Part shown: piece after piece, positions 2,405 through 58,524 of the stretch | Numbering within the stretch: the stretch's first letter is position 1 | Layout: every line of letters starts with the position of its first letter | DNA from: Burkholderiales bacterium | Lineage (GTDB): Bacteria; Pseudomonadota; Gammaproteobacteria; Burkholderiales; JACQAP01 | Direction of reading: 5' to 3' | Assembly: GCA_035549715.1 (NCBI GenBank) | Contig: DASZQJ010000160.1 | Coordinates: 22,688 to 86,687 of the forward strand | DNA: 64,000 nt | Position numbers and translations under genes: made by a program | The notes under the pieces: model-generated | Told to the model about the DNA's origin: nothing | The model's database searches: none | What the model saw: the letters and a program-made list of their open reading frames with translations, nothing else

Positions 2405-2419
2405 GGCACGCCGGATGCG
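2404..2419 (+). promoter_or_regulatory. Candidate sigma-54 (-24/-12) promoter upstream of the response regulator gene
   Basis: GGGCACG-CCGG-ATGCG versus consensus TGGCACG-N4-TTGCW. GG and GC are correctly spaced, with two mismatches. It lies 70 nt upstream of ATG 2490. Confidence 0.3.
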
Positions 2420-2489
2420 CCACGGCACATGGGAGCCCCGCCCCCCCTCTGGCACAATGCGCCAACCCTCCGGAATCCCGAACCCAGGC

Positions 2490-3926
<1,437 letters not shown>

Positions 3927-5348
3927 ATGTATTACGCATTCTTCGGACTGAACCAGCCTCCCTTCAAGATCACGCCCGACACCGAAGCCTTCTTCGAGGG
4001 CGGCAACCGCGGGGCAATCCTCGAGGCGCTGATCTACGCCATCACCCACGGCGAGGGCATCATCAAGGTGACCGGCGAGGTGGGCAGCGGCAAGACCATG
4101 CTGTGCCGGGTCCTGCAAACGCGGCTGCCGCAAAACGTCGAGAACGTCTACCTCGCCAATCCCAGCGTCTCGCCCGAGGAAATCCTCCACGCCATCGCCT
4201 TCGAGCTGCAGATCACCCTGCCCCGGGATGCCAGCCGACTGGAGGTCATGCATGCCCTGAATGCCTACCTGCTCGAGCGCCACGCGCAGAAAAAGCAGGT
4301 CGTGGTCTTCGTCGAGGAATCGCAGGGCATGCCGCTCGCTACCCTGGAGGAAATCCGGCTGCTCTCGAACCTCGAGACGCAGCAGCACAAGCTCCTCCAG
4401 ATCGTCCTGTTCGGCCAGCCCGAACTGGACGAAAACCTGCGCCAGCCGCAAATCCGGCAACTGCGCGAGCGCATCACCCACAGCTTCAACCTGGCGCCCC
4501 TGGATGAGCAGGATGTGAGGGCCTACTTAGCGTTCCGGCTCCGTGCGGCGGGGTATCACGGTCCAGACTTGTTCGGGCCGCGGGTGATTTCCTACATGAC
4601 GCGCGCCAGCGGTGGCTTGTCGCGGCGCATCAATCTGATTGCCGACAAGGCACTGCTGGCGGCCTTCGCCGAGGGCACCCACAACGTCAGCCTGGCGCAC
4701 GTGAAAGCCGCCGTGAGAGACAGCGAGTTCAGCGACGTGCCCATGCAAAAATCCCGTTCACCAATGGCTTACGCCCTGGTCGGACTGGCGATCGGGGGTG
4801 CCCTGGGCATTGCGGCCTTCGCCGCCTATCTCGGCTTTTCCGGGAATCGGCAGGCCGCCCCATCGGCGTCCGAAAGCGCTGCCCCGGCACAGGCCCCCCT
4901 GCCGGCGGCCTCCACGCCCGTCCGGCCGGCCGTGGCATCCGGGCCTCCGGTGGTCCAGGCCGCCGCACCGGCACCCGCGGGTCCGGCCGTTGCCGCCCTG
5001 GAGCTGCCGCCGGACCTGCTGGAACAGCGTTTGCTCGCGACCACGCAGTGGCTCGACCAGCAAAATGCCGGCGCGTACAGCATCCAGCTGCTCGGCTCGC
5101 CCGACGCAGAACTCCTAAGGGAGTATTTCAAAACCATCGCCAAATATCTTGAAATAGAAAAGGTTTATGTGTACCGTACGGTTGCAAATCAGCGTCCTTC
5201 GTTTACGGTTTTATACGGGACTTACGCTGATCGGTACGAGGTGACCCGCGTCCTGGAGAGCCTCCCGCCCGAAATGCGGGTCAACCGGCCTTACACTCGG
5301 ACGATTCAGGGGATACGCGCCGAGATCGCTTATCAGAACCGGTCGTGA
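3927..5348 (+). CDS. ExeA/GspA/MshM-like AAA ATPase with TM segment, Ala/Pro-rich linker and C-terminal SPOR-like domain
   Basis: MYYAFFGLNQPPFKITPD N-terminus and Walker A GEVGSGKT are typical of ExeA/MshM. TM segment AYALVGLAIGGALGIAAFAAYLGF. C-terminus YSIQLLGS...VYVYRTV...FTVLYGTYADRYEV resembles a SPOR/peptidoglycan-binding fold. Confidence 0.8.
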   Translation: MYYAFFGLNQPPFKITPDTEAFFEGGNRGAILEALIYAITHGEGIIKVTGEVGSGKTMLCRVLQTRLPQNVENVYLANPSVSPEEILHAIAFELQITLPRDASRLEVMHALNAYLLERHAQKKQVVVFVEESQGMPLATLEEIRLLSNLETQQHKLLQIVLFGQPELDENLRQPQIRQLRERITHSFNLAPLDEQDVRAYLAFRLRAAGYHGPDLFGPRVISYMTRASGGLSRRINLIADKALLAAFAEGTHNVSLAHVKAAVRDSEFSDVPMQKSRSPMAYALVGLAIGGALGIAAFAAYLGFSGNRQAAPSASESAAPAQAPLPAASTPVRPAVASGPPVVQAAAPAPAGPAVAALELPPDLLEQRLLATTQWLDQQNAGAYSIQLLGSPDAELLREYFKTIAKYLEIEKVYVYRTVANQRPSFTVLYGTYADRYEVTRVLESLPPEMRVNRPYTRTIQGIRAEIAYQNRS

Positions 5349-13772: not shown

Positions 13773-14266
13773 AGCACATCGCGCCGATGCTCGCGCTCGC
13801 CGCCCTCTGCGGCGCCGCCCACGCCGCCGAGCCCCTCGGCCGCCTGTTCTTCACCCCCGCGCAGCGCGCCACCCTCGACGCCGGCAAGCAGCTTGACCTG
13901 CCCAAAAAGGCCGGTCCCACCGTGCGTGGCCCCAGCGCCGTGACTCTCAACGGCATCGTCACCCGCAGCGACGGCGAATCCACCGTGTGGGTCAACGGCT
14001 CGCCCGCCAATGTGCCGCGCGGCGCAGGCAACGCGACGATCTACGCCAAGCCCTCCGGCGGCAGCAGCGCCCGCGTGACGGTCATGGAATCGGGAACCAA
14101 GCTGCGCGTGGGGCAGACGCTGGACCGGCGGACGGGGAAGGTGATGGAAACCTACGAGCACAAGCCGGCACCAATCCAATCAGACACAACCTCAAAAGAA
14201 GCGGGTACCACGCAAGGCGCTCCCAACCCCAGCAGGCCACCGCAGGAAGGCACGACGGAGAACTAA
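13769..14266 (+). CDS. Small secreted/periplasmic protein (MshK-like position)
   Basis: Internal ATG of ORF 13724..14266 gives MKHIAPMLALAALCGAAHA signal peptide. ATGA overlap with the upstream gene. No recognisable catalytic motif. Confidence 0.5.
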   Translation: MKHIAPMLALAALCGAAHAAEPLGRLFFTPAQRATLDAGKQLDLPKKAGPTVRGPSAVTLNGIVTRSDGESTVWVNGSPANVPRGAGNATIYAKPSGGSSARVTVMESGTKLRVGQTLDRRTGKVMETYEHKPAPIQSDTTSKEAGTTQGAPNPSRPPQEGTTEN

Positions 14267-14276
14267 TTCCGTCGGA

Positions 14277-15896
14277 TTGGTACAGGCCCGCATGAATTTC
14301 GTGCCTCACAAATGTGTTTGTCATGGCCGTAACCGGCAGCTCGGCGCAGCTCTGCTGCTTTCTTTGACCCTCATGGGCTTGCTGGTCGCCATTTTTGTCG
14401 TCATCCTGACCAATGATCTTGTTAGAGAGAACTACCGACGGCAGCTGACGACGATTGCATTAGCGAAGGCTAAAGAGGCTCTTATAGGTTTCGCCGCAAG
14501 TGTGAATCTTTCCGGAGCTTGCGGTAGTCCAACGAACAATTGCGTTCGTCCTGGGGATCTTCCCTGCCCGGATCTTAACGACAATGGCGAAGCTGATGAC
14601 GGGGCTTGCAGTGACGCTAGTAGTGGAAATCAGGAAAAGCGGATAGGCCGTCTACCGTGGAAGACACTAGGATTGCCGGATTTGCGCGACGGTAATGGTG
14701 AGCGTTTGTGGTATGCGGTGTCCAACAATTTCCAGAATAGCGTTCGCACTATCTGCTTGACCCCTGGTGACGCTGGATGTTTGAACAGCGAAACACCAGG
14801 AACCATTACGGTCTCCGACCGCAATGGCGTTGTAATACATGATGGACAGGACCCCAACCCGCCCTCCGGCTTGGTCGCGATCATCATTGCGCCCGGCCCT
14901 GCCTTGGTGCGCGATGACACAGGCTCCACGCAGGATCGCAGTTGCTCCGGCGGATCATGTGATGCACAGGGCGTATGCACAAGCAGCCCTGCATCGCTAA
15001 CGGCCAAGTGCAATCCAGTGAACTACCTCGACGTTGTGAGCGGCGGAGAAGACAACGCCAACTTTACCGATGGCAGTAGCTATGACGGTTTTATCAATGG
15101 ACCAATACTTGCCGCAGGAAACAATAGTGTGCTCGTTAACGATACTCTGCTACCCATAAAGTACGAAGATGTGATGCCTTTGCTCGAACGCCGCGTGGCA
15201 AAGGAAGCGTTGAATTGCATCTCTAACTACGGCGCTGTGAACAAGCGCTTCCCTTGGGCAGCCGGTATAACGGAATCGGCCAGTTCTTCGACATATCAAT
15301 CCAAAGCAGGCGAGCGATTCGGCAGAATTCCTGATTCATTTGGAATCACTCTTCTTGATACAGTTTCGCTGACAGATCCGTTTCTTGCCAGTCTATTGAG
15401 TCCGATTTGCAGTGCACCACTTACGGCGGGGTTATGCGCCACACCGACATGGGCTACGGTTCCGGCATGCAACATTCCGAATGGTGGCTGGTGGCGAAAC
15501 TGGAAGGATCAGGTCTTTTACGCCACGTCCGCAGCCAATAAACCGCTGGTTTCGGTAGATCTATTTCCGACGTTGCAAATTGGCTTTTCTATCGAAGCAA
15601 GTTGCGCCCCAACGGGGAACTGCATGACCGTGAACCCGACGGCCGGTGCGGACAAACGTGCGGTAGTGATCGTTGCCGGACGGCCGCTCGCAAGCACTAC
15701 ACCTCCGCAACCTCAAAAAACCTATGTTGATCCGCCAGCCCCACCGACCGCAAGCGTTCGGAATAGAGCCAATGCCCAGCACTATCTCGAAGGCATAAAC
15801 GCCGGTCCGGCATCGACGCCCGCTGCGCCCAGTAACTTCACATTTCAACAGTCTCCCTGGTCTACGACTTTCAACGATACAGTCTTGTACCAATGA
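14277..15896 (+). CDS. Large Cys-rich pilin-like protein with GspK/PilX/MshP-type hydrophobic N-terminus (candidate tip/adhesin minor pilin)
   Basis: 539 aa. N-terminus RQLGAALLLSLTLMGLLVAIFVVIL lacks a canonical G-FTLxE site. It shares KEALxGFA...LPCP...NG..D...C...KRxGxxPW..LGxPxL motifs with the next gene. Many Cys. Low GC. The start may be 14292. Confidence 0.6.
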   Translation: MVQARMNFVPHKCVCHGRNRQLGAALLLSLTLMGLLVAIFVVILTNDLVRENYRRQLTTIALAKAKEALIGFAASVNLSGACGSPTNNCVRPGDLPCPDLNDNGEADDGACSDASSGNQEKRIGRLPWKTLGLPDLRDGNGERLWYAVSNNFQNSVRTICLTPGDAGCLNSETPGTITVSDRNGVVIHDGQDPNPPSGLVAIIIAPGPALVRDDTGSTQDRSCSGGSCDAQGVCTSSPASLTAKCNPVNYLDVVSGGEDNANFTDGSSYDGFINGPILAAGNNSVLVNDTLLPIKYEDVMPLLERRVAKEALNCISNYGAVNKRFPWAAGITESASSSTYQSKAGERFGRIPDSFGITLLDTVSLTDPFLASLLSPICSAPLTAGLCATPTWATVPACNIPNGGWWRNWKDQVFYATSAANKPLVSVDLFPTLQIGFSIEASCAPTGNCMTVNPTAGADKRAVVIVAGRPLASTTPPQPQKTYVDPPAPPTASVRNRANAQHYLEGINAGPASTPAAPSNFTFQQSPWSTTFNDTVLYQ

Positions 15897-16633
15897 CTTC
15901 ACTGAACCGGAGCTTTGTTTCCGTAGCCAACTCGCCTAAAGGATTCACGCTAGTCGAGCTGGCAATTGGTATGCTCGTGATTGCGTTATTATTAGGAAGT
16001 ATCCTCGTTCCGCTGTCGGCACAGGTGGAACAACGCAAAGTCGCGGAAACCCAAAAAGTACTCGAGGAAACGAGAGAAGCACTGCTCGGGTTTGCAGTGA
16101 CTCAAGGCTATCTGCCTTGTCCAGCGGTATCAGCAGCAAATGGAGATGAAGACCGCTCCGCTGGGACTTGCACGGGGGGAAAGCGCCAAGGATTCGTGCC
16201 ATGGGCACTCCTCGGAACGCCCAAACTAGACGCTTGGGGACATATATTTCGATATAGCGTGTCCCCCACGTTTAGTACATCAGTAGCACCATTCAGCCTC
16301 GCATCCACGCGCGACATTACTATCCGAACCCGGGATAGCAGTGGCGCCCTTACGAACCTCTCGAATCTAAACGCGATCCCAGCGGTAGTTCTCTCCGTTG
16401 GAAAGAACGGCTATTGGGGAACAATTGACAACGGCACCAATGTCGGCGACAAGCTAGGCACTCCGGACAATGTGGACGAAGATACGAATGGCAATGGAAG
16501 CGGCCAGGTGTTCGTCTCCCGCACAATCACGGATAATGCAAATGCTACGGGAGGAGAGTGGGACGACATAGTGATTTGGCTGTCCCCCAACGTTCTTTTC
16601 AATCGAATGGTCGCTGCTGGCAAACTGCCTTGA
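15893..16633 (+). CDS. Prepilin-type N-terminal cleavage/methylation domain protein (minor pilin/pseudopilin)
   Basis: Class III signal: ...SPKG/FTLVELAIGMLVIALLLG with Glu5. 4-nt overlap with the upstream gene. Low GC. Confidence 0.8.
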   Translation: MTSLNRSFVSVANSPKGFTLVELAIGMLVIALLLGSILVPLSAQVEQRKVAETQKVLEETREALLGFAVTQGYLPCPAVSAANGDEDRSAGTCTGGKRQGFVPWALLGTPKLDAWGHIFRYSVSPTFSTSVAPFSLASTRDITIRTRDSSGALTNLSNLNAIPAVVLSVGKNGYWGTIDNGTNVGDKLGTPDNVDEDTNGNGSGQVFVSRTITDNANATGGEWDDIVIWLSPNVLFNRMVAAGKLP

Positions 16634-16655
16634 CCATTGCAGAGCAGCGCGGCAA

Positions 16656-18395
16656 TTAACGAGTAACTGAACGACTCTCCCCCGGCCTCAACGCAAAGCA
16701 AACATTCCCCGCCCGGTTGTCCTGCAGCTCCATCCGGTAGCCCTGCTCCTTCGCGAACTTCCCCGACTGGTACAGCCCCACGCCCAGGCCGCTGTTCGAC
16801 TGCACCGGTGAGCTGAAAAGCTGCGTCGCGAGCCCCTCGGGCACGGGCTGGCCGTCGTCGGTGACCTTGAGCGTGAAGCCGTTGCTCCACTGCAGGGCGG
16901 CGACGATGCGCAGCCTGCCCACCGCCTTGCGCTTGTCGAGCGCGTTCTGCAGGAGGTTCGTCAGCGCGCTCTCGAACACGTCCGCCGGCAGGGTCGCCCC
17001 CGCCGGGAAGTCCGCGCCCTCGAACTCCACGGCCTCGTGGGCGTAGCGCTGCTTCACCGCCGTCCACCATTGCAGGGCGGACGTGGCGTCGGTGCCCACG
17101 GGCGGCTTGGTGTTGAGCTTGTCCAGGGTGATCTGCAGGCGCTGGGTGATCTGCGGCAGCTGGCGCTGCATGAGCAGGCGCAGGGCGTCGGCATCGTCGG
17201 CGCCGCTGGTCTCGGCCGCGTTGCACAGCGAGCGCAGGGTCTGCAGCAGGTTCTTCACGTCGTGCGTCAGGCGCGAGCCGGTCTCGTAGATGGCCTGCAC
17301 GTAGGCGTTGCGGCGCTGCTCCTGCTCGCGCACCTTGGCGTCGTAGTAGTCGCCCAGCAGGCGCGCCAGCAGGCGGATGTGCAGCACCAGCGCCGGGCTC
17401 GGCGACCAGCGCGTGTACAGGGTCAGCGTCAGGCCGCCGAAGGTGAAGGCGGTGGCGTATTTGGTGGTGTCGCCGGCCACGCCGCTCGAGCCGCGGCCCT
17501 GCCACTGCACGCCGGAGAGCCAGGGCAGGCCCGACATCTCGTGCGCGGCGACGATGACGAACTTGTCCGGGTCGCGCTCGCGGTCGGCCAGGGCGGCCAG
17601 GCTGTGCATCCAGCGCTCGAAGGGCACGCCCATGCTCATGAAGTAGCGGGTCATGAGGTTGCCGATGCCGGCAAAGCCCGCGCGCGGGTCCCACAGCAGC
17701 GACAGGGCGACCAGCAGGCCCGCGATCACGATGAGCGTCTGCGCCAGCGAGACCACGTAGTTGCCGTGGCTCACCTCCTTGATCACGAAGGAGCCGAGCA
17801 CCAGCACCACGAGCATCAGGAACAGCAGCAGGCTGTAAAAGAGGTCCACCGAGTAGGCCGAGGCGCGCCTGGACTTCTCCGTCTTCACGAAAAAGATCGC
17901 GAGCACGGGCAGGACGAGGACGTAGCGGACCACCGTGGTCAGCAGGCCGGGGAAGGCCTGCTCGGGGAACAGGTGCGGCACCACCCAGGTGAGCAGCACC
18001 GAGAGCAGGTACACGGCGGCGAGCAGGGAGACGATGCGCTGGCCGAAGTTCTTGATGCCGGGGACGTTGCCGCCGATCAGCGAGAACAGCACCGAGATCC
18101 ACAGCGCCATCAGCCACCAGCTGCCGACGGCGATCAGCAGCACCGCCGCGCCGATGATCAGGACCGCCTGGCCGGGGATGACCTTCTGCCCGCCCTGCAT
18201 CAGCGGCTGCCACAGCAGGAAGAAGCCGAAGTGCGACAGCAGCAGCGCCTTGGCGAGCGGGTCGCCCAGCTCCAGCAGCAGGGCCCCGTGCAGCGCGAGC
18301 AGCATCAGCGAGAGCCAGTGCTCCTGGCGAATGCCGGCCACCAGGCGGCGGGCGAATCCGGATTCCGTTTTGATTTCCGCTTCCATCCTTGACAA
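16656..18395 (-). CDS. Polytopic membrane sensor histidine kinase, PrsK-like
   Basis: 579 aa. About 8 or more N-terminal TM helices. H-box SRLTHDVKNLLQTL. HATPase N/G boxes LLQNALDK, DDGQPVP, GLGVGLYQ. Confidence 0.75.
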   Translation of the reverse strand: MSRMEAEIKTESGFARRLVAGIRQEHWLSLMLLALHGALLLELGDPLAKALLLSHFGFFLLWQPLMQGGQKVIPGQAVLIIGAAVLLIAVGSWWLMALWISVLFSLIGGNVPGIKNFGQRIVSLLAAVYLLSVLLTWVVPHLFPEQAFPGLLTTVVRYVLVLPVLAIFFVKTEKSRRASAYSVDLFYSLLLFLMLVVLVLGSFVIKEVSHGNYVVSLAQTLIVIAGLLVALSLLWDPRAGFAGIGNLMTRYFMSMGVPFERWMHSLAALADRERDPDKFVIVAAHEMSGLPWLSGVQWQGRGSSGVAGDTTKYATAFTFGGLTLTLYTRWSPSPALVLHIRLLARLLGDYYDAKVREQEQRRNAYVQAIYETGSRLTHDVKNLLQTLRSLCNAAETSGADDADALRLLMQRQLPQITQRLQITLDKLNTKPPVGTDATSALQWWTAVKQRYAHEAVEFEGADFPAGATLPADVFESALTNLLQNALDKRKAVGRLRIVAALQWSNGFTLKVTDDGQPVPEGLATQLFSSPVQSNSGLGVGLYQSGKFAKEQGYRMELQDNRAGNVCFALRPGESRSVTR

Positions 18396-18450: not shown

Positions 18451-19218
18451 ATGAAGCCGAACCGGGTGGGCGCCATCGCCCGCTACACCGTCCTCGAAGC
18501 CTGGCGCAACCGGCTGGGCATCATCGTCGCCGTCGCCGTCGCGCTGCTGTTCCTGCTGAGCGTGTTCGTGCGCGAACTCGCCGTCACGGAAAGCGGCCGC
18601 CTGCAGACCGCCCTGCTCGCCGCGGCGCTGCGGCTCGCCAGCGTGTTCCTGGTGGGCCTGTACGTCCTCAACGGCCTCACCCGCGAGTTCAACGACAAGG
18701 TGGTCGAGCTGGTGCTCTCGCTCGACCTGCCCCGCCCGGCCTACGTGCTGGGCAAGTTCCTCGGCTACGCCGTGGTGGCCGCCGTCGTCGCGCTCATCGC
18801 CACCATCCCCGTGGCATTCCTCGCGCCCGCCGGCGCGGCGGCCTGGGGTTTCTCGCTCGCCCTGGAGCTGCTGCTGGTCGCGGCCATCGCGGTGTTCTGC
18901 GTGACCACCTTCACGCAGCTCCTGAGCGCGGCGGCCTTCGTCGCGGCATTCTACCTGCTTGCCCGTTCGATCACCGCCATCCAGTTGATGAGCACCGCCG
19001 GCCTGGTGGCCGACGCGGGCCCGGCCCAGAAGCTGGGCGAATGGCTCGCCAACGCGATGGCCTTCGTGCTGCCGCGGCTGGACACCTTCACGCAGACGGC
19101 ATGGCTGATGCCCGAGGGTTCGCCCGGCGGGCTGGGCGCCATCGTCCTGCAGTCGGCCATCTACGTGGCCCTGCTGCTGGGGGCGGCCATGTTCGACCTC
19201 TACCGCCGGAATTTCTGA
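18451..19218 (+). CDS. ABC-2 family transporter permease (six-TM membrane protein)
   Basis: Tail of ORF 17935..19218 from ATG 18451: MKPNRVGAIARYTVLEAWRNRLGIIVAVAVALLFLL..., multiple hydrophobic helices, ends DLYRRNF. No ATPase gene adjacent. Confidence 0.65.
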   Translation: MKPNRVGAIARYTVLEAWRNRLGIIVAVAVALLFLLSVFVRELAVTESGRLQTALLAAALRLASVFLVGLYVLNGLTREFNDKVVELVLSLDLPRPAYVLGKFLGYAVVAAVVALIATIPVAFLAPAGAAAWGFSLALELLLVAAIAVFCVTTFTQLLSAAAFVAAFYLLARSITAIQLMSTAGLVADAGPAQKLGEWLANAMAFVLPRLDTFTQTAWLMPEGSPGGLGAIVLQSAIYVALLLGAAMFDLYRRNF

Positions 19219-19225
19219 GGCGCCC

Positions 19226-19972
19226 TTGCGCGAGCGCGCCCTCTCGGCCGTCCCGGCCCCGGTGATCTGGCTGCTGGCCGGGGCCTTTTGCGCCCAGCTC
19301 GCGCTCAAGGGCCTCGAGCCGCGACCTCAGGCCCGCGCGGCGGACCTGCCGCCGGCGCCGCCCGCCTCCACCCTGCGCCTGCTCGGCCTGGGCGAGCCCC
19401 TGGGCATCGCCCAGCTCCTGTCGCTCTACCTGCAGGCCTTCGACACCCAGCCCGGGATCAGCATCGCGTTCCGGGAGCTCGACTACGAAGCCGTGGCGGG
19501 CTGGCTGGACCGGGTGGTGGACCTCGACCCCGCCGGCCAGTACCCGCTGCTCATGGCCTCCCAGGTCTATACGCAGGTGCCGGACGAGGCCCGCCAGCGG
19601 CGCATGCTCGCCTGGGTCGAGCGCCGCTTCCGGGAGGATCCGGACCGGCGCTGGCGCTGGCTCGCGCACGCCGCCATCCTCGCCAAGCACAGGCTGCACG
19701 ACCTGCCGCTCGCCCTGCAGTACGCGCAGGAGGTCCACCGCCTGGCCACCGGGCCTTCCGTGCCGGACTGGGCCAAGCAGATGCACATCTTCCTGCTCGA
19801 GGACATGGGCGAGCGCGAAACCGCGAAAATCCTGCTCGGCGGGCTGCTCGCGAGCGGCACCATCACCGACGAGCACGAGATGCTTTTTCTCACCGAACGC
19901 CTGAAATCGATGGGCGGCCCTGTTGAGAAATCGTCAGGATCGTCGGAATCACGACTCAACCGGGAGCGCTGA
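19226..19972 (+). CDS. Hypothetical membrane-anchored protein
   Basis: ORF 19226..19972 (TTG start per track). N-terminal helix VIWLLAGAFCAQLAL. Helical repeat-like body (RRMLAWVERRFREDPDRRWRWLAHAAILAKH). No family recognised. Confidence 0.45.
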   Translation: MRERALSAVPAPVIWLLAGAFCAQLALKGLEPRPQARAADLPPAPPASTLRLLGLGEPLGIAQLLSLYLQAFDTQPGISIAFRELDYEAVAGWLDRVVDLDPAGQYPLLMASQVYTQVPDEARQRRMLAWVERRFREDPDRRWRWLAHAAILAKHRLHDLPLALQYAQEVHRLATGPSVPDWAKQMHIFLLEDMGERETAKILLGGLLASGTITDEHEMLFLTERLKSMGGPVEKSSGSSESRLNRER

Positions 19973-20066
19973 GCGGCGTGACGGCGCCCCGGCGGCCCCT
20001 CGCGCGGGGATCATTAAAATTCAATGAATCAATGTGTTATGGGGAATCACGGGCGTGCCCAAGCCA

Positions 20067-20094
20067 TGCGCACGTCATTGCGCCCGTTTGCGCC
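20067..20094. promoter_or_regulatory. Three phased TGCGC repeats, candidate enhancer (UAS) for the pilin promoter
   Basis: TGCGCAcgtcatTGCGCCcgttTGCGCC, about 50-75 nt upstream of the -24 element. Confidence 0.3.
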
Positions 20095-20098
20095 ATGA

Positions 20099-20111
20099 AA
20101 TCAACCCATTG
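20099..20111 (+). promoter_or_regulatory. IHF-binding site consensus match
   Basis: AATCAACCCATTG matches WATCAANNNNTTR at every defined position. It lies between the TGCGC repeats and the -24/-12 promoter, in an AT-rich patch. Confidence 0.5.
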
Positions 20112-20143
20112 ATTTAAAACGAATGTAGTTCGCCAGGTCACGA

Positions 20144-20159
20144 TGGCACGGAACTCGCA
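20144..20159 (+). promoter_or_regulatory. Sigma-54 (-24/-12) promoter of the major pilin genes
   Basis: TGGCACG-GAAC-TCGCA versus TGGCACG-N4-TTGCW (one mismatch). 40 nt upstream of ATG 20199, RBS GGAGGGAAG. Confidence 0.7.
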
Positions 20160-20198
20160 CGGGGAAACCGGACAGAACCGCTTCCAGGAGGGAAGATC

Positions 20199-20921
20199 AT
20201 GAAACGCCAACAACAGGGCTTTACCCTGATCGAAATCGCCATCGTGCTGGTCATCATCGGCCTGCTGCTCGGTGGCGTGCTCAAGGGCCAGGAGCTGATC
20301 ACCAGCGCCCGTGTCCGCAACCTGATCTCGCAGCAGGACGGCGTCAAGGCCGCCTTCTTCGGCTTCCAGGACCGCTTCCGCGCCCTGCCGGGCGACTACG
20401 CGACCGCCTCGACCAACCTCAAGTGCGGCTCCGGCAACTGCCTGAACGGCAACGGCAACGGCCAGATCCAGTCCAACGCGACGCCGGTGAGCGGCAGCGA
20501 AGTGCACGAGGAAATCCTGGCCTGGAGCCACCTGACCGCGGCCAATTTCCTCAACGGCAGCTACAACATGACGGCCGGCGACACCGCGCAGACGGACGCC
20601 AACAGCCCGAAGAACCCGTACAGCATCTACATGCAGCTCGTGTACGACTCGAACTACGCGGACAGCACGGCGGCCACCAACAAGCACAACCTCAAGACCG
20701 GCAGCCAGGTCCCGGTGGAAATCCTGGCCGAGGTGGACCGCAAGATCGACGACGGCAACCCGCTGCAGGGCGGCTTCCGGTTCTCGCCCTTCGTCCCCAA
20801 CGGCGGCACGGCCCTGCCGGCGCCGGCGGCGACCTACTCCGCGGGGGTCTGCGCCAGCACGGCCGGCACCTGGTTCTCCACCAACAGCGAGACCAACTGC
20901 GGCGGCGCGAGTCTGTTCTAA
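20199..20921 (+). CDS. Type IV major pilin-like protein, paralog 1
   Basis: MKRQQQG/FTLIEIAIVLVIIGLLLGG class III signal with Glu5. C-terminal Cys pair (C-x16-C) ending NCGGASLF. Confidence 0.85.
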   Translation: MKRQQQGFTLIEIAIVLVIIGLLLGGVLKGQELITSARVRNLISQQDGVKAAFFGFQDRFRALPGDYATASTNLKCGSGNCLNGNGNGQIQSNATPVSGSEVHEEILAWSHLTAANFLNGSYNMTAGDTAQTDANSPKNPYSIYMQLVYDSNYADSTAATNKHNLKTGSQVPVEILAEVDRKIDDGNPLQGGFRFSPFVPNGGTALPAPAATYSAGVCASTAGTWFSTNSETNCGGASLF

Positions 20922-20946
20922 GCCGGGCGCCGGAGCAGACCAGCAG

Positions 20947-20972
20947 AAAAGCCCGCGCAAGCGGGCTTTTTT
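20947..20972 (+). terminator. Rho-independent terminator after pilin paralog 1
   Basis: AAAAGCCCGCgcaaGCGGGCTTTTTT: 6-bp GC stem, 4-nt loop, T6 run. Confidence 0.8.
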
Positions 20973-21084
20973 GTTGCCCCTCCCCCGAACACACAGGAAA
21001 AAGGCCCAAGGCGGGATTGAAGCAATTACGGCGGGAAATGGGCTATGCTCCCGCCAGTTTTCGATCTTGCCAATGCCTGTGGCC

Positions 21085-21792
21085 ATGCGCCTGAGAACAA
21101 GAACAACAAGCGGCTTCACGCTGGTCGAAATCGCCGTGGTGCTGGTGGTGATCGGCCTGCTGCTCGGCGGGCTGCTGCGGGCCACGCAGCTCACCGTCGG
21201 CGCCCGGGTGCACGACCTCGCCGCCCAGCAGGATGCCGTGCGCACCGCCTACTACGGCTTCTACGAGCGCTACCGCGCCATCCCCGGCGACTACTCCCAG
21301 GCGGTCGCCAACATCAGGGGCGCCACCCGCAACGGCAACGGCAACGGCCGCATCGAAGCCGGCGCCACCCCCAATGAAACCATCCTCGAGTGGGAGCACC
21401 TTGCCCGCGCCGGCTACGTCAACGGCAGCTACACCTACGCGGACACCGAATCCGACGCCACCAGCCTGAAGAGCAAGTACGGCGCGTACGTGAAAATCGC
21501 CTTCGACGGCATCTACGGCGCCGGCACGGACACCAACCCCAGCACCCTGCGGCACAACATCAAGACCGGCCCGAACGTGCCGGTGGAGGTGCTGGCGGAG
21601 CTGGACCGCAAGATCGACGACGGCCGCCCCAATACCGGCAGCTTCCAGTTCTCCCGCTACGAGAGCAACGGCAGCGGCGCCCCCACCGACGGCAGCCCCA
21701 CCGCGCCGTCCTGCACCAGCGCACTGGACGCCGACGCGGTCTGGAACGCCAACAACGGCAGCAGCAACTGCGGCGGCGCAAGCCTGCTGTAG
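21085..21792 (+). CDS. Type IV major pilin-like protein, paralog 2
   Basis: MRLRTRTTSG/FTLVEIAVVLVVIGLLLGG. Roughly half the positions are identical to paralog 1 by eye. C-terminal C-x19-C ending NCGGASLL. The start may be 21073. Confidence 0.85.
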   Translation: MRLRTRTTSGFTLVEIAVVLVVIGLLLGGLLRATQLTVGARVHDLAAQQDAVRTAYYGFYERYRAIPGDYSQAVANIRGATRNGNGNGRIEAGATPNETILEWEHLARAGYVNGSYTYADTESDATSLKSKYGAYVKIAFDGIYGAGTDTNPSTLRHNIKTGPNVPVEVLAELDRKIDDGRPNTGSFQFSRYESNGSGAPTDGSPTAPSCTSALDADAVWNANNGSSNCGGASLL

Positions 21793-21795
21793 CCC

Positions 21796-23769
21796 CTATC
21801 CCTGCAGGAGGAACACCTCGGCGTCCGCCAGGTCCGCCTGCTTGCCCCGCAGCACCAGGACGTCGCCCTCGGCAAGCTCGGTCTTCGGGTCGGGGGTCGA
21901 GTTGCGGATGTTGCGCCGGCGCAGCGCCGTCACCTCGACATGCAGCCGGGCGAGGTCGAGCTGCTGCAGCGTGCGCCCCGCCGCCGCCGCCCCCGGCGGC
22001 AGCACCAGCGAATGCATGCGCGGCTGGTCGCGGTCGTTGCCGTCCTCCACCTCGTCCGTCACGCCGCGGAAAAAGCCCTTGAACAGGCCGTAGCGCTGCT
22101 CGCGCGTTTCGCGGATGCGCCGCAGCACGCGGTTGAGCGGCACGCCCAGCAGCATCAGCGCGTGGGTCGCCAGCATCAGGCTGCCTTCGAGGATCTCGGC
22201 CACCACCTCCGCGGCGCCCGCCTCCTTGAGCCGGTCGATGTCGCTGTCGTCGAGGGTGCGCACGATGACCGGCATGCCGGGCCGCAGCTCCTGCACCTGC
22301 GCGAGGATCGCCAGCGCCGACTTCGTGTCCGCGTAGGAGACCACCAGCGCGTTGGCGCGCAGCAGGCCGGCCGCGATCAGCACCTCGCGGCGCGCCGCGT
22401 CGCCGAACACCACGCTTTCGCCCGCCGCGGCCGCCTCCCGCACCCGCTGCGGGTCGATGTCCAGCGCGATGAACTCGATCTTCTCCTGCTCGAGGAAGCG
22501 CGCCAGGTTCTGGCCGCTGCGGCCGAAGCCGCAGATGATCACGTGGCGGTCCGCCGCCATGGTCTGGATGGCGATGTTGTGCAGGGTCATCGCGTGGTTC
22601 ATCCATTCGGCCGCGCTGAAGCGCCGCACGATGCGCTCGCTGTGCTCGATCAGGAAGGGCGCGGCGAGCATCGACAGCACCAGCGCCGCGAGCGCCACCT
22701 GGGTGAGGCCCGCGGGCAGCAGCTCGAGGTGGGAGGCCTCGCTGACCAGCACCAGGCCGAACTCCCCGGCGCCCGCCAGGGCAAGGCCGGCGCGCAGGGC
22801 GACGGACGCCTGCGCGCCGAACAGGCGGCTCAGGCCGAAGATCAGGGCGATCTTGCCCGCGAGCAGGGCCACGAGCAGCAGCCCCACCCATTGCCAGTCG
22901 TGGATCACGACGCTGACGTCCAGGTAGGTGCCGACGGTGATGAAGAACAGGCCCAGCAGCACGTCGCGAAACGGCTTGATGTCCTCCTCCACCTGGTAGC
23001 GGAACTGGGTCTCGGAGATGAGCATGCCGGCGAGGAAGGCGCCCAGCGCGTAGGACAGGCCGGCGATGCCCGTGAGCCAGGCAAGCCCCAGCGTGATCAT
23101 CAGCACGTTGATGACGAACAGCTCGGAGGACTTCTGGCGCGCCACCAGCGTGAACCAGCGCCGCATCACCTTCTGCCCCACCGTCAGGATGAGCAGCAGC
23201 AGCACGCCCGCGCGCAGCAGGGCAAGGAGCAGCTCCTGCGCCACCGAGTCGTCGGCCTGCGCGAAGGCGGGGTAGAGGATCAGGAAGGGCACCACCGCGA
23301 GGTCCTGGAACAGCAGGATGCCGATGATCTGGCGCCCGTGGGCGGAATTGATCTCCAGGCGCTCGGCCAGCATCTTGGCGAGGATCGCGGTGGAGGACAT
23401 GGCCAGGATGCCGCCCAGCACGACCCCGGTGCGCCAGCCGTGGCCGAAGGCCGACGCCGCGGCGATGCAGACCAGCACCGTCGCCAGCACTTGCGCCGCC
23501 CCCAGGCCGAACACCACGCGCCGCATGGTGATCAGCTTGGGCAGGCTGAACTCGAGCCCGATGGTGAACATCAGGAACACGACGCCGAACTCGGCAAGGC
23601 GGCGGATGTCCTCGTTCGCGGGCACCAGTCCGATCGCGTGCGGCCCGATGGCGATGCCGAGCAGCAGGTAGCCCAGCAGCGCGGGCAGCTTGAGCGAGCG
23701 GAACACGACCACCACCAGGACAGCGGCGGCGAGCAGCAGCAGGATGAATTCGAGGATTCCGAAGCTCAT
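21796..23769 (-). CDS. CPA2 monovalent cation:proton antiporter (KefB/KefC/YbaL-like) with TrkA-N and TrkA-C domains
   Basis: ORF 21796..23805(-). MSFGILEFILLLLAAAVLVVVVFRSLKLPALLGYLLLGIAIGPH. Rossmann IICGFGRSGQ. C-terminal RCK-C-like region. ATG 23769 preferred over GTG 23805. Confidence 0.85.
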   Translation of the reverse strand: MSFGILEFILLLLAAAVLVVVVFRSLKLPALLGYLLLGIAIGPHAIGLVPANEDIRRLAEFGVVFLMFTIGLEFSLPKLITMRRVVFGLGAAQVLATVLVCIAAASAFGHGWRTGVVLGGILAMSSTAILAKMLAERLEINSAHGRQIIGILLFQDLAVVPFLILYPAFAQADDSVAQELLLALLRAGVLLLLILTVGQKVMRRWFTLVARQKSSELFVINVLMITLGLAWLTGIAGLSYALGAFLAGMLISETQFRYQVEEDIKPFRDVLLGLFFITVGTYLDVSVVIHDWQWVGLLLVALLAGKIALIFGLSRLFGAQASVALRAGLALAGAGEFGLVLVSEASHLELLPAGLTQVALAALVLSMLAAPFLIEHSERIVRRFSAAEWMNHAMTLHNIAIQTMAADRHVIICGFGRSGQNLARFLEQEKIEFIALDIDPQRVREAAAAGESVVFGDAARREVLIAAGLLRANALVVSYADTKSALAILAQVQELRPGMPVIVRTLDDSDIDRLKEAGAAEVVAEILEGSLMLATHALMLLGVPLNRVLRRIRETREQRYGLFKGFFRGVTDEVEDGNDRDQPRMHSLVLPPGAAAAGRTLQQLDLARLHVEVTALRRRNIRNSTPDPKTELAEGDVLVLRGKQADLADAEVFLLQG

Positions 23770-27693: not shown

Positions 27694-29145
27694 ATGAAGC
27701 ATTCGCTGCAGCTCAAGCTTTCCCAGCACCTCACGCTGACGCCCCAGTTGCAGCAGTCCATCCGGCTGCTGCAGCTCTCGACGCTGGAGCTGAACCAGGA
27801 AATCGAGACCTTCCTGCAGGAAAACCCGCTGCTCGAGCGCGACGAGGAAGAGGAAGCGGCCTCGGCCCCCCCGCCCGACGTCATCCCCACGACGACGGTC
27901 ACGACCAGCACTTCGGCCGAAACCCCCGCCGCCGCCAACGAGACCGGCGACAGCGGCGACGAGCGCGGCCCGGCGGAAGCGGACTGGACGCTGGACGACG
28001 GCTACGGCTCCTACAGCGGGCAGGAGGGCGAGGACGATTCCGACGCGCCGCTGGCCGCCGAGCAGACCAAGCTGCGCGACCACCTGCTCGGGCAGATCAG
28101 CCTCATGCAGATGCCCGATCGCGACAAGGCGATCGTGGCCTTCCTGATCGACAACCTCGACGATGACGGCTTCATGACCCAGGACCTGGCCGAGCTCGCC
28201 GCACTGCTGCCCGCGGAGCTGGAAATCGAGCCCGACGAGCTGTCGATCGCCCTCAAGTACGTGCAAAGCCTCGACCCGCCCGGGGTGGGCGCGCGCAACC
28301 TGGGCGAATGCCTGGCGCTGCAGCTCGAGGTCCTGCCCGAGGACACGCCCTTTCGCAAGGAGGCGCTGCAGGTCGTCACCCAGCACCTGGACGCCTTCGC
28401 CTCGCGCGACTACTTCAAGCTCAAGAAGCTCCTGCGCTGCGACGACGACATGCTCAGGGGCCTGCAAAGCCTGATCACCCACCTGAACCCGCGCCCGGTG
28501 GCCAACTATTCCGGCGCGGAGACGCGCTACATCGTCCCGGACGTGGTGGTGCGCAAGGTCAAGGGCATGTGGGTGGCCTCGCTCAACCCGGAAGCGATGC
28601 CCAAGCTGCGCATCAACCGCCTGTACGCCGACATCCTGCACCGCAACCGCGACTCGAGCTTCCAGCAGCTCGCCGGGCAGCTGCAGGAGGCGAAGTGGCT
28701 GATCAAGAACGTGCAGCAGCGCTTCGACACCATCCTGCGCGTGTCGCAGGCGATCGTGGACCGCCAGCGCCACTTCTTCGAGCACGGCGAGGTGGCGATG
28801 CGCCCGCTGGTACTGCGCGAGATCGCGGACACGCTCGGGCTCCATGAGTCGACCGTCTCGCGGGTGACCACGCAGAAATTCATGCTTACCGCGCGCGGCA
28901 TTTTCGAGCTGAAGTACTTCTTCGGCAGCCACGTGACGACCGAAACCGGCGGCGCCTGCTCGGCCACCGCCATCCGCGCCCTGATCAAGCAGCTGGTGGG
29001 CGAGGAAGACCGCAAGAAACCCCTCTCCGACAGCCAGATCTCGGAAATTCTCGGCAGGCAGGGCATCATGGTGGCGCGCCGCACCATCGCGAAGTACCGG
29101 GAATCGCTGCAGATCCTGCCTGTCAATCTCCGCAAGTCGATTTGA
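27694..29145 (+). CDS. rpoN: RNA polymerase sigma-54 factor
   Basis: MKHSLQLKLSQHLTLTPQLQQSIRLLQLSTLEL region I, acidic region II, RpoN box ARRTIAKYRE near the C-terminus. Confidence 0.97.
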   Translation: MKHSLQLKLSQHLTLTPQLQQSIRLLQLSTLELNQEIETFLQENPLLERDEEEEAASAPPPDVIPTTTVTTSTSAETPAAANETGDSGDERGPAEADWTLDDGYGSYSGQEGEDDSDAPLAAEQTKLRDHLLGQISLMQMPDRDKAIVAFLIDNLDDDGFMTQDLAELAALLPAELEIEPDELSIALKYVQSLDPPGVGARNLGECLALQLEVLPEDTPFRKEALQVVTQHLDAFASRDYFKLKKLLRCDDDMLRGLQSLITHLNPRPVANYSGAETRYIVPDVVVRKVKGMWVASLNPEAMPKLRINRLYADILHRNRDSSFQQLAGQLQEAKWLIKNVQQRFDTILRVSQAIVDRQRHFFEHGEVAMRPLVLREIADTLGLHESTVSRVTTQKFMLTARGIFELKYFFGSHVTTETGGACSATAIRALIKQLVGEEDRKKPLSDSQISEILGRQGIMVARRTIAKYRESLQILPVNLRKSI

Positions 29146-57544: not shown

Positions 57545-57560
57545 TGGCACGGGGGTTGCC
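57545..57560 (+). promoter_or_regulatory. Sigma-54 (-24/-12) promoter
   Basis: TGGCACG-GGGG-TTGCC. All defined positions match except the final W. 68 nt upstream of ATG 57628 (RBS AAGGAGAG). Confidence 0.7.
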
Positions 57561-57627: not shown

Positions 57628-57996
57628 ATGCTGCTCGACCCGATGTCCGACCTGAGCGCCCGCCCGGGCCGTAACTTCCTGCAGTTGCTCCAGGAAGGCG
57701 TCCAGACCCTTTTCCACCTGCTGCTGTTCTCCCTGCTCGCGCTGGGCATCGGCGGGCTCATCTACAAGGCCGTGCGGCCCGAGGGCTGGATCGGCAGTAC
57801 GGTGGCCCAGCTCTGGTCCCAGCACCCCGTGGCGACCCTCGTGGCCTGCGCCGCGGCCCTGGGCGCCGGCGCCTTCGGCACCCGCCTGTTCGAGCGCCTG
57901 CCGCTGTTTGGCAAGCGCGGCGACATGCTGGTCTATTGCTGCCTCGCCCTGGGCCTGTTCTTCGCCTTCAAGCTGATCGTCACCGGCGGCCTGTAA
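57628..57996 (+). CDS. Small hypothetical membrane protein (3-4 predicted TM helices)
   Basis: 122 aa. Hydrophobic segments LFHLLLFSLLALGIGGLIY, VATLVACAAALGAGAFG, LVYCCLALGLFFAFKLIV. Good RBS. Sigma-54 promoter upstream. Confidence 0.6.
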   Translation: MLLDPMSDLSARPGRNFLQLLQEGVQTLFHLLLFSLLALGIGGLIYKAVRPEGWIGSTVAQLWSQHPVATLVACAAALGAGAFGTRLFERLPLFGKRGDMLVYCCLALGLFFAFKLIVTGGL

Positions 57997-58215: not shown

Positions 58216-58231
58216 CTGGCACGGGTGTTGC
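58216..58231 (+). promoter_or_regulatory. Sigma-54 (-24/-12) promoter
   Basis: TGGCACG-GGTG-TTGCC. 72 nt upstream of ATG 58303 (RBS AGGAGGA). Confidence 0.7.
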
Positions 58232-58302
58232 CCTACCGGGCGTGCAACGCGAGCCCGTCCCACGCGGGCACCTTCCACCGATCCACGAGAAGGAGGACTC
58301 GA

Positions 58303-58524
58303 ATGACCATGCGTTCGTTGCTGCTGCTCTGCGCCGCCGTCCTCGCCGCCTCACCCGCCATTGCCGCCGATGCCCCGAAGCGGATCGCGGAGCGCGTGCC
58401 CGCGGCCGATCCCGCCGCCGCGCCGATGCCCGCGGCGAGCCCCCGCGAAGCCCTCGCGGCGCCGCCTGCGCGCAAAGGCAAGCGGGTGCGCCATTCCTTC
58501 CCCGCCCCCAGGCGGGTGATGTAG
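58303..58524 (+). CDS. Small secreted Ala/Pro-rich hypothetical protein
   Basis: From ATG 58303 of ORF 58180..58524: MTMRSLLLLCAAVLAASPAIAADAPKR... 73 aa. Strong RBS. Followed by a terminator. Confidence 0.55.
   Translation: MTMRSLLLLCAAVLAASPAIAADAPKRIAERVPAADPAAAPMPAASPREALAAPPARKGKRVRHSFPAPRRVM

Follow-up and report, generated by a model that had tools for sequence, protein, structure and literature searches.

The segment from about 19920 to 20198 is best explained as the control region of a pilin gene, the first and probably the major one in the MSHA-type type IV pilus cluster of a Burkholderiales bacterium. The core claim, that this gene is transcribed from an enhancer-dependent sigma-54 promoter activated by an NtrC-family regulator, is given a probability of about 0.7 from the sequence analysis. 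It would represent a previously undescribed example of the known PilR/Npa-type pilin promoters, which depend on sigma-54, an activator, and IHF; the core of the preliminary reading of this DNA is supported, its assignment of the enhancer is not. All positions refer to the complete stretch of 64,000 nucleotides that was analysed, hereafter the window.

In the proposed mechanism, sigma-54 RNA polymerase would bind at 20144-20159 and wait there as a closed complex, and initiation near 20170 would depend on an enhancer-binding protein that remodels this complex at the expense of ATP; the most likely one is the NtrC-family response regulator whose gene lies at 2415-3926. This regulator would probably be phosphorylated by the polytopic histidine kinase encoded at 16656-18395, following a PilS/PilR-like or Nps/Npa-like logic. 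A DNA bend at one or both of two IHF-like sites (20099-20114 and 20027-20039) would bring the upstream-bound activator to the polymerase, with the activator most likely sitting on a pair of dyads (19922-19955) that overlaps the end of the upstream open reading frame (ORF), and not on the TGCGC repeats of the spacer. The transcript would stop at a terminator at 20947-20972, yielding a monocistronic pilin mRNA. The analysis shows the sequence elements, their conservation, and their enrichment; from these we infer which protein binds each site and that the promoter depends on rpoN, on the activator, and on IHF.

The -24/-12 element TGGCACGGAACTCGCA lies on the forward strand at 20144-20159, exactly where a preliminary description of this DNA had placed it, and is recognizable from the letters themselves, by pattern scanning, and by its conservation in relatives. 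Its GG (20145-46) and GC (20157-58) are exactly 10 nt apart, and it matches 11 of the 12 bases of the consensus TGGCACG-N4-TTGCW. The single mismatch falls in the -12 part (TCGC instead of TTGC), at a position that is variable (T, G, C, or A) among family members too. The pattern occurs five times in the window with at most one mismatch (1.9 expected), and no other strong sigma-54 site was found in the 20-kb cluster. The only other match in the assembly cluster, TGGAACAGCGTTTGCT at 5020, inside the MshM-like ORF, was set aside as probable coding conservation, because locus L172 also has it, in an unchanged reading frame. The 3' end of the -24/-12 element is 39 nt from the pilin ATG, on the same strand, and the predicted start at about 20170 leaves a 5' untranslated region of about 29 nt. 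The ribosome-binding site and the ATG at 20199 were also described correctly: a Shine-Dalgarno GGAGG (20187-20191, forward strand) stands 7 nt 5' of the start codon and is kept in the closest relative, L081. The 226-nt spacer (19973-20198) is comparatively AT-rich, with a GC content of 0.52-0.55 versus 0.68 in the window, and an Rfam scan of 19800-21200 left it empty, giving only sub-threshold matches on the terminator hairpin.

The element recurs across the pilin family. Among 138 leading family pilin genes, drawn from about 170 loci, 78 carry a sigma-54 site before the ATG (defined as at least 9 of the 12 consensus bases, ending 25-60 nt 5' of the ATG), versus 0-4 of 160 in dinucleotide shuffles, and such a site precedes only one of 22 tandem second pilins. 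The preliminary description had proposed aligning the region across orthologous loci. In these spacer alignments (mean identity 45%), GGCAC...CT.GC stands out as the main conserved block 5' of the ribosome-binding site and start codon; the rest of the spacers have diverged, leaving the -24/-12 element as the only strongly conserved block. That a functional sigma-54 promoter precedes the first pilin gene is predicted with high confidence.

The gene that this promoter would serve (20199-20921, forward strand) encodes pilin 1, a protein of 240 aa with the leader MKRQQQ followed by GFTLIE. It belongs to a very large family (at least 8000 proteins) that is structurally uncharacterized; its globular domain remained unmatched, and a PDB sequence search with the pilin gave no match. 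The closest pilin relatives add little upstream DNA, with none for P0002 (92%) and little or none on the contigs of P0003 and P0004. Upstream, on the same strand, lie the genes of an ABC-2-type membrane protein (18451-19218) and of a protein of 248 aa (19226-19972), whose A-rich 3' tail carries the dyad pair. Downstream, an intrinsic terminator, AAAAGCCCGCgcaaGCGGGCTTTTTT (20947-20972, forward strand), was missed by a consensus terminator scan and revealed by folding (-27.2 kcal/mol, z -6.1, with none of 200 shuffles as stable). It is followed by pilin 2 (21085-21792, forward strand, alternative ATG at 21073), a paralog that is 47% identical to pilin 1 and has no sigma-54 element before it. 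The pilin genes, in the plural, had been proposed as the target; the strong terminator separating the two genes, together with the rarity of the site before tandem second pilins, limits the support for this to pilin 1.

IHF-like sites were scanned with the core consensus WATCAANNNNTTR. Three exact matches occur in the 64 kb, versus 0.12 expected, and all of them fall in the pilin spacer, at 20027-20039 (+), 20099-20111 (+), and 20102-20114 (-). The distal site (20013-20039, forward strand) consists of an A/T tract, atcattaaaattca, 5' of the exactly matching core AATCAATGTGTTA (20027-20039), and is centred at about -137 from the predicted start. The proximal site (20099-20114) is a perfect palindrome, AATCAAcccaTTGATT, that matches the consensus on each strand, is centred at about -63, and precedes the promoter by about 45 nt; here, the A/T tract 5' of the core is present in the minus-strand reading only (cgttttaa). 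The full consensus match announced at 20099-20111 is therefore real, its letters AATCAACCCATTG forming half of the palindrome. The palindrome around 20099, the second exact match at 20027-20039, and the conserved dyad pair further upstream had all been overlooked. Across 78 orthologous promoters, IHF-like sites occur on the forward strand of the distal zone in 30 (6.9 +/- 2.6 in zone-local shuffles) and in the proximal zone in 16 (3.7 +/- 1.7). The counterpart of the proximal site reads AGTCAAtctaTTGAAT in L081, and another sublineage has TATTAACTTATTG where the proximal site stands. Both sites would lie between enhancer and promoter if the enhancer is the dyad pair, and only the proximal one if it is the segment 20062-20093. 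Overall, the involvement of IHF at the pilin promoter is slightly favoured.

Two alternatives bear on these proximal elements. The -24/-12 match might be unused, pilin 1 being expressed by read-through from the operon of the ABC-2-type and 248-aa proteins or from an unrecognized sigma-70 promoter. No terminator was found between the upstream ORF and pilin 1 (z -0.4), the other 60 of the 138 leading family pilins have no site of at least 9/12 (among them that of L002, which nevertheless has a regulator ortholog on the same contig), and pathogenic Neisseria use RpoD at pilE (PMC6528607). This reading is nonetheless very improbable, given that the element is conserved in position and sequence within diverged spacers, that no sigma-70-like promoter was found in 19700-22000, and that an intact rpoN gene is at hand. 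The latter, correctly reported downstream of the pilins, is full length (27694-29145, forward strand) and scores 725.8 bits against NF004598, for a cut-off of 621. Alternatively, the palindrome AATCAAcccaTTGATT could be the operator of a dimeric transcription factor, either a repressor or a co-activator, and no IHF site. Its perfect 6-bp arms with a 4-bp spacer, the TCAA-N4/5-TTGA retained in L081, and the asymmetry usual for IHF sites speak for such an operator, which nevertheless appears unlikely: either strand of the palindrome is an exact match to the IHF consensus, with a 5' A/T tract in the minus-strand reading, and non-palindromic IHF-like sites occupy the same position in other sublineages. 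Furthermore, its half-sites are everted relative to FNR/CRP-type boxes (consensus TTGAT-N4-ATCAA), and an FNR/CRP-type reading was rejected because of this half-site orientation.

The position of the enhancer is less clear-cut. The preliminary description assigned the activator to three TGCGC repeats at 20067-20094. Three copies are present, starting at 20067, 20079, and 20089 (spacings of 12 and 10), although the last one ends at 20093. No comparable cluster of TGCGC occurs elsewhere in the window (0.4 expected), but some 5-mer occurs three times within 27 nt in 95 clusters of the window, or about 0.3 expected per spacer; as the choice of 5-mer must be allowed for, the triplet is not beyond chance. 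The 78 orthologous promoters show no excess of TGCGC at this position (9 observed versus 9.2 +/- 2.8), and the window alone among them has three copies. L081 reads TGCTC, TCGCC, and TGAGC at the repeat positions, while retaining the flanking CACGTCAT. A Gibbs motif search between -115 and -8 in the 78 promoters returned only a generic A/T-rich motif (information content of 7.15 versus at most 5.56 on shuffled input) and no GC-rich repeat. What is shared with L081 is the block GCCATGCnCACGTCAT..CGCC (20062-20088, forward strand; pairwise footprint, at least 12/15 identical), which holds the first two TGCGC copies, the third being at 20089-20093. It occupies a classical enhancer position, just 5' of the proximal IHF-like site, and is possibly a lineage-specific regulator site.

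Further upstream, position-weight-matrix scanning revealed two copies of a 14-bp dyad on the forward strand, GTTGAGAAATCGTC (19922-19935, 7.8 bits) and GTCGGAATCACGAC (19942-19955, 15.9 bits), exactly 20 nt apart inside the 3' end of ORF 19226-19972, each a candidate enhancer half; the family consensus is GTCGAAAAATCGAC. The upstream dyad block is conserved with L081, L149, L090, and L001. In 37 of 49 loci, there is a partner copy exactly +/-20 nt away, no other offset being seen, and in a scan of 1.77 Mb, 53 of 58 dyad pairs have a sigma-54 site 60-340 nt downstream. The pair is the only one in the window, and over the 300 nt that precede these sigma-54 pilin promoters the strict motif shows an enrichment of about 75-fold. 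Matches at 1500-1527 were discarded because they form a coding repeat (VEFSQVEFSY) on the opposite strand, in an mlaF-like gene. In the window itself, the two dyad copies are degenerate (one and two mismatches) and lie 190-250 nt from the promoter, with unconvincing helical phasing relative to it (Rayleigh p of 0.37 at 10.5 bp, and of 0.006 at 10.0 bp, but among related sequences). A conserved binding site is predicted because the DNA-binding helix of the candidate activator is invariant across orthologs that are 71-87% identical. Tandem dyads on one helix face, upstream and conserved, are found here, albeit confounded by the coding tail. The pair is thus a better family-wide enhancer candidate than the TGCGC repeats, and the chance that it acts as the enhancer of the pilin promoter can be put at nearly even. 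A stronger version, in which the last codons and stop of the upstream gene double as protein tail and as the site of an unnamed, highly conserved PilR-like activator controlling the pilin family, is put forward tentatively.

These observations can be set against two other layouts. In the layout first described, the activator occupies the TGCGC copies at 20067-20093, 20099-20111 is the only place where IHF binds, and the architecture is complete within 140 nt (20060-20200). Its order and spacing are classical, with repeats at -103 to -77, an IHF-like centre at -63, and then the promoter; an inverted repeat, GCGCA-N6-TGCGC, is present at 20068-20083, the surrounding block is shared with L081, and the window holds no second TGCGC triplet. 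Such a layout is nevertheless improbable as a whole, and so is a role of the repeats as the enhancer, considering the chance-level occurrence of the triplet, its loss in L081 beside a preserved flank, and the outcome of the Gibbs search. In the alignments, the repeats are not conserved, although a regulator whose helix-turn-helix does not vary would be expected to have a site that does not vary either. The distal IHF-like site and the dyad pair, both conserved across the family, moreover fall outside the 140 nt. The other layout considers the dyad block as merely the coding sequence of a conserved C-terminal peptide, the activator binding a fast-evolving, lineage-specific spacer site, for example the block at 20062-20088, which L081 conserves. 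The tail AEKSS-xx-S-x-K is conserved as protein, the motif stands nearly always at a fixed distance from the stop codon, the pair always accompanies the 3' end of that gene, and counting over the entire window shows no enrichment of the motif (14 versus 10.7). As the tail peptide is itself conserved, coding and DNA-level constraint are not fully separable. This coding explanation is nevertheless rather doubtful, since both copies fit a single dyad consensus while being read in different frames, and most pairs precede a sigma-54 site. Codon usage points the same way: GC3 is 0.54 in the tail versus 0.76 in the body (64 of 68 loci), with AAA and GAA preferred, and A-ending rare codons accumulate in the tail of a gene whose GC3 is 0.95. 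Finally, in L027, L032, and L048, the upstream protein ends earlier and the dyad falls in the spacer past the stop codon, as a perfect palindrome, GTCGATATCTCGAC, in L032 and as a one-base variant in the two others. The TGA of ...TGAC serves as the stop codon in most relatives; the window has CGA, making its protein five residues longer.

The candidate activator (2415-3926, forward strand) is an NtrC-family response regulator with REC, AAA+, and HTH_8 domains (PF00072, PF00158, PF02954), a GAFTGA motif, and a Sigma54_activat score of 218.7 bits. Six-frame translation confirmed that it is the only GAFTGA/Walker-A protein in the window, and it is, as first suggested, the most plausible activator. 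Its description as PrsR-like holds as a resemblance and not as membership: it scores 343.3 bits against PrsR (TIGR02915), for a cut-off of 502.6, and 366 against NtrC, for a cut-off of 559. The family matches listed for the regulator include no PilR-specific one, and a PDB search returned generic NtrC-family entries only. Its gene lies 16 kb from the pilin promoter and is linked to MshM-like, secretin, TPR, MshE, and MshG genes in three genomes, including the window. The pairing of regulator and promoter is made by cluster membership only, because none of 63 long loci has an enhancer-binding protein within 10 kb of the pilin. That this regulator activates the pilin promoter is, on balance, probable.

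The candidate cognate sensor kinase (16656-18395, reverse strand) has the H-box SRLTHDVKN, a HATPase_c domain, and at least five transmembrane segments (hydrophobic, residues 72-232). Its gene is divergent from the operon ending at the pilin promoter, and it also lies beside the module of ABC-2, unknown, and pilin genes in L081, L084, and L086-L088. The ATPase gene adjoins that of the regulator, and the ABC-2 permease gene that of the kinase; regulator and kinase may be coupled to a split ABC transporter. The pilus itself is typified by an MshE ATPase with a c-di-GMP-binding MshEN domain (NF053729, 64.4 bits versus a cut-off of 38), whose orthologs contain PF05157; a secretin resembling MshL scores slightly below the cut-off (TIGR02519, 236.7 bits versus 250.2).

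If correct, this analysis would model for the first time the regulation of an MSHA-like pilus that is widespread among soil and freshwater Burkholderiales but unstudied, offering a concrete promoter, a candidate activator/kinase pair, and two candidate enhancers. It would add one more lineage with sigma-54, a PilR-like activator, and IHF at pilin genes; if the dyad reading holds, the activator would govern a very large pilin family in environmental Burkholderiales. The general understanding of enhancer-dependent transcription is unchanged; this would be an ordinary example of a common pilin switch.

As in the Vibrio MSHA cluster, an MshE-type ATPase with an MshEN domain, an MshL-like secretin, and an MshM-like ATPase are found together with a TPR protein, a GspF/MshG-like platform protein, and pseudopilins. 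Unlike in Vibrio, a sigma-54 activator gene stands at the head of the assembly operon, and the pilin module is found together with a kinase and an ABC-2 protein. Vibrio mshA is not known to be enhancer-dependent. The regulator shares its domain architecture with PrsR of the PrsK/PrsR system of the PEP-CTERM box (TIGR02916/TIGR02915), and PEP-CTERM families are weakly matched by the kinase (44.5 bits), the ATPase (TIGR03015, 217 bits), and the TPR protein, all below curated cut-offs; the neighbours here are, in contrast, pilus assembly genes, and not exosortase or PEP-CTERM genes.

In Pseudomonas aeruginosa and relatives, PilS-PilR controls pilA with sigma-54 (PMC6058289). The present system resembles it by its polytopic sensor kinase, its response regulator with REC, AAA+, and HTH_8 domains, and its sigma-54 promoter directly before the major pilin, with a predicted monocistronic transcript. 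Nevertheless, pilS and pilR are adjacent in Pseudomonas and the two genes are separate here, GTCGAAAAATCGAC resembles neither the TGT-N11-AGA nor the GTCT elements that are the hallmarks of PilR sites (PMC6058289), and no orthology to PilR emerged, the best family scores being those of generic NtrC and PrsR, both below cut-off. Commensal Neisseria pilE relies on RpoN, IHF, and Npa/Nps, with IHF between enhancer and promoter (PMC6528607). The likeness extends to a betaproteobacterial pilin gene with a GG-N10-GC promoter, an NtrC-type response regulator with a cognate kinase (candidates here), and an IHF site between enhancer and promoter (predicted here). Unlike in commensal Neisseria, a distance of 13 kb separates the genes of regulator and kinase, which lie on opposite strands, the 240-aa pilin has an unmatched globular domain, and the pilus is of the MSHA type, with its c-di-GMP-binding MshE, MshL-like secretin, and MshM-like ATPase; two IHF-like sites are present, and the candidate enhancer shares its DNA with the end of the upstream ORF.

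The spacer in front of the first pilin gene (pilin 1, 20199-20921) extends over 226 nt, from the stop codon of the upstream ORF (19226-19972) to the ATG at 20199, with a GC content of 0.52-0.55 against 0.68 for the window. All four elements named in the preliminary description are present in it: TGCGC repeats starting at 20067, 20079 and 20089, an IHF-like site AATCAACCCATTG (20099-20111), a -24/-12 element TGGCACGGAACTCGCA (20144-20159), and GGAGG at 20187-20191, 7 nt 5' of the ATG. Pilin 1 is a 240-aa prepilin, with the N-terminus MKRQQQ followed by GFTLIE. Near the pilin no sigma-70-like promoter was found, and known RNA families gave no match near its promoter. A terminator is absent 5' of pilin 1 (z -0.4), and a strong one (20947-20972; -27.2 kcal/mol, z -6.1) lies directly 3' of it.

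Sequence comparison points to a genuine and conserved sigma-54 element. The survey drew on about 170 fetched loci encoding pilin relatives, and sites were counted over 138 leading family pilin genes, each preceded by 250 nt or more of sequence. A site was defined as GG-N10-GC matching 9 or more of the 12 positions of the consensus and ending 25-60 nt 5' of the ATG. Such a site precedes 78 of the 138 genes, compared with 0-4 of 160 dinucleotide shuffles, which bears out the proposed -24/-12 promoter; among second pilins of tandems it occurs once in 22. Site-to-ATG distances peak sharply at 30-49 nt (39 nt in the window), and GGC...CT.GC is the sole invariant block, apart from the start codon region, in an alignment of seven spacers (mean identity 45%). 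Transcription is predicted to start near 20170.

The pilin family is very large (at least 7995 matches, 60-70% identical), with mainly metagenomic homologs and a conserved C-terminal ...NCGGASLF. Neither pilin 1 nor its paralog pilin 2 has a Pfam domain beyond the N-terminal methylation motif, and the globular part has no sequence match in the PDB. One family pilin (L002, 9560-10010), about 47 kb from a regulator ortholog (L171) on the common contig JADLAC010000047.1, lacks both the sigma-54 element and the dyad pair described below; not every copy of the family is, therefore, under such control.

Across the window, the sigma-54 pattern occurs five times with at most one mismatch (1.9 expected). 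Two further sigma-54-like elements have near-identical cores, TGGCACGGGGGTTGCC (57545-57560) and TGGCACGGGTGTTGCC (58217-58232), each with a small ORF about 70 nt downstream: 57628-57996, encoding a 122-aa hydrophobic protein without family match, and about 58303-58524, whose 73-aa product has an N-terminus resembling a signal peptide, with a hairpin and T-run downstream of the ORF. The pilus cluster holds no further strong site. A weak sigma-54-like sequence, TGGAACAGCGTTTGCT (5020-5035), lies within the MshM-like ORF, about 400 nt 5' of the secretin gene; it probably reflects coding conservation, since L172 (12557-12572) keeps it in the identical reading frame.

The IHF-like site ahead of the promoter also stands. 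It is an exact match and makes up one half of the perfect palindrome AATCAAcccaTTGATT (20099-20114), which gives a consensus match on both strands. Exact matches to WATCAANNNNTTR number three in the 64 kb (0.12 expected), all within the pilin 1 spacer, and a second IHF-like site, AATCAATGTGTTA (20027-20039), has an A/T tract 5' of it. With the -24 element as anchor for the 78 orthologous promoters, matches allowing a single mismatch fell into two zones: a distal one, mainly on the + strand (30/78 loci; zone-local shuffles give 6.9 +/- 2.6), and a proximal one (16/78 against 3.7 +/- 1.7). The proximal element is kept in the nearest relative, L081; another sublineage carries TATTAACTTATTG at its position.

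The TGCGC repeats, proposed as the activator binding site, did not hold up. Their triplet at 20067-20093 is the only one in the window (0.4 expected), but 95 triplets of some 5-mer inside 27 nt occur there. Among the 78 promoters, only that of the window has three copies, and TGCGC is not enriched at the equivalent position (9 against 9.2 +/- 2.8). L081, with 79% pilin identity, reads TGCTC, TCGCC and TGAGC instead. The block 20062-20088 (GCCATGCnCACGTCAT..CGCC) is nevertheless conserved between the two (at least 12/15 identical); in this sublineage some feature of it, other than the repeat, may thus be under constraint.

A better family-wide enhancer candidate is a pair of 14-bp dyads (consensus GTCGAAAAATCGAC), found by Gibbs sampling and pattern scans, which carries the conserved part about 140 nt farther upstream than the 20060-20200 interval to which the architecture had been confined. 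The copies lie at 19922-19935 (7.8 bits) and 19942-19955 (15.9 bits), the single such pair in the window. Half of the strict dyad matches in 1.73 Mb fall within 300 nt upstream of pilin promoters (about 75-fold enrichment). A second copy stands at exactly +/-20 nt in 37/49 loci, and at no other offset from 8 to 40. Of 58 pairs in 1.77 Mb, 53 have a sigma-54 site 60-340 nt downstream. Promoter aside, the pair is the upstream block best kept in the closest relatives. Helical phasing relative to the promoter could not be demonstrated.

The pair overlaps the final codons of the upstream ORF, plus its stop codon in most relatives. The tail peptide AEKSS..S.K is conserved in its own right, so that coding constraint confounds the comparison. 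Four observations argue for constraint at the DNA level: the two copies occupy different reading frames; GC3 in the ORF tail is 0.54 (body 0.76; 64/68 loci), with a preference for AAA and GAA codons; in three loci (L027, L032, L048) the upstream protein is shorter and the dyad lies 3' of its stop codon, L032 having the perfect palindrome GTCGATATCTCGAC and L027 and L048 a variant that differs by one base; and the helix-turn-helix of the candidate activator described below is invariant among 71-87%-identical orthologs, which leads one to expect a conserved binding site. A comparison with L149, L090, L001 and many other loci showed that the TGA of the downstream dyad (...ATGAC) is the upstream gene's stop in most relatives; the window (19950-19972) has CGA, and its ORF is five codons longer (RLNRER). 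A 10-nt inverted repeat, CCCTGTTGAG (19918-19927) and CTCAACCGGG (19955-19964), 90% complementary, flanks the pair; none was seen in L081.

The candidate activator is encoded within the same pilus island (1679-21792). This opens with an ABC ATPase gene (1679-2404), directly 5' of that of an NtrC-family response regulator (2415-3926; REC, AAA+, HTH_8). Assembly genes follow, encoding, in order, an ExeA/MshM-like ATPase, an MshL-like secretin, a TPR protein, an MshE-type ATPase with a c-di-GMP-binding N-domain and a GspF/MshG-like platform protein, then four uncharacterised ORFs and one pseudopilin, a polytopic histidine kinase (16656-18395, minus strand), an ABC-2-type membrane protein (18451-19218), the uncharacterised 248-aa protein (19226-19972), pilin 1 and pilin 2 (21085-21792); rpoN lies at 27694-29145. 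The ATPase and ABC-2 permease genes, 16 kb apart and adjoining the regulator and kinase genes, respectively, resemble a split ABC transporter; an ATPase gene precedes that of the regulator in L171 as well, but not in L172. A low-GC patch at 14000-16650 (GC 0.51-0.59 against about 0.70, GC3 about 0.5 against 0.95), spanning an uncharacterised 539-aa ORF and the 246-aa pseudopilin, has the look of a cassette that was replaced or imported; the corresponding place in L081 contains similarly sized genes.

As proposed, the regulator is the only enhancer-binding protein of the window (sole GAFTGA protein). A Burkholderiales metagenome-assembled genome encodes a protein of identical sequence (100%), and in two further genomes the regulator gene occurs together with the MshM-like, secretin, TPR, MshE and MshG genes, beside the mla operon. 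Its membership of the PrsR or PilR families was not established; it scores 366 for NtrC (cut-off 559) and 343 for PrsR (cut-off 503), and a PDB search returned generic NtrC-family matches only. The kinase, ABC-2 protein, uncharacterised protein and pilin form a module kept together even apart from the assembly genes; in L086-L088 (also L083 and L084) it is intact, with the kinase on the minus strand and a ~240-aa uncharacterised protein, and flanked by unrelated housekeeping genes. None of 63 long loci encodes an enhancer-binding protein closer than 10 kb to the pilin; the pairing of regulator, kinase and promoter is therefore inferred from cluster membership, with the regulator as a plausible activator of pilin 1.

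Of the enhancer-dependent promoter originally suggested, the sigma-54 promoter, the IHF-like site and a plausible in-cluster activator are retained, and the activator binding site is not. Dependence of pilin promoters on sigma-54 and a PilR-type activator is well known (PilS-PilR, PMC6058289), and pilE of commensal Neisseria depends on RpoN, on the Npa/Nps pair and on IHF, which is placed between enhancer and promoter (PMC6528607). By analogy, the pilin 1 promoter would work like both.
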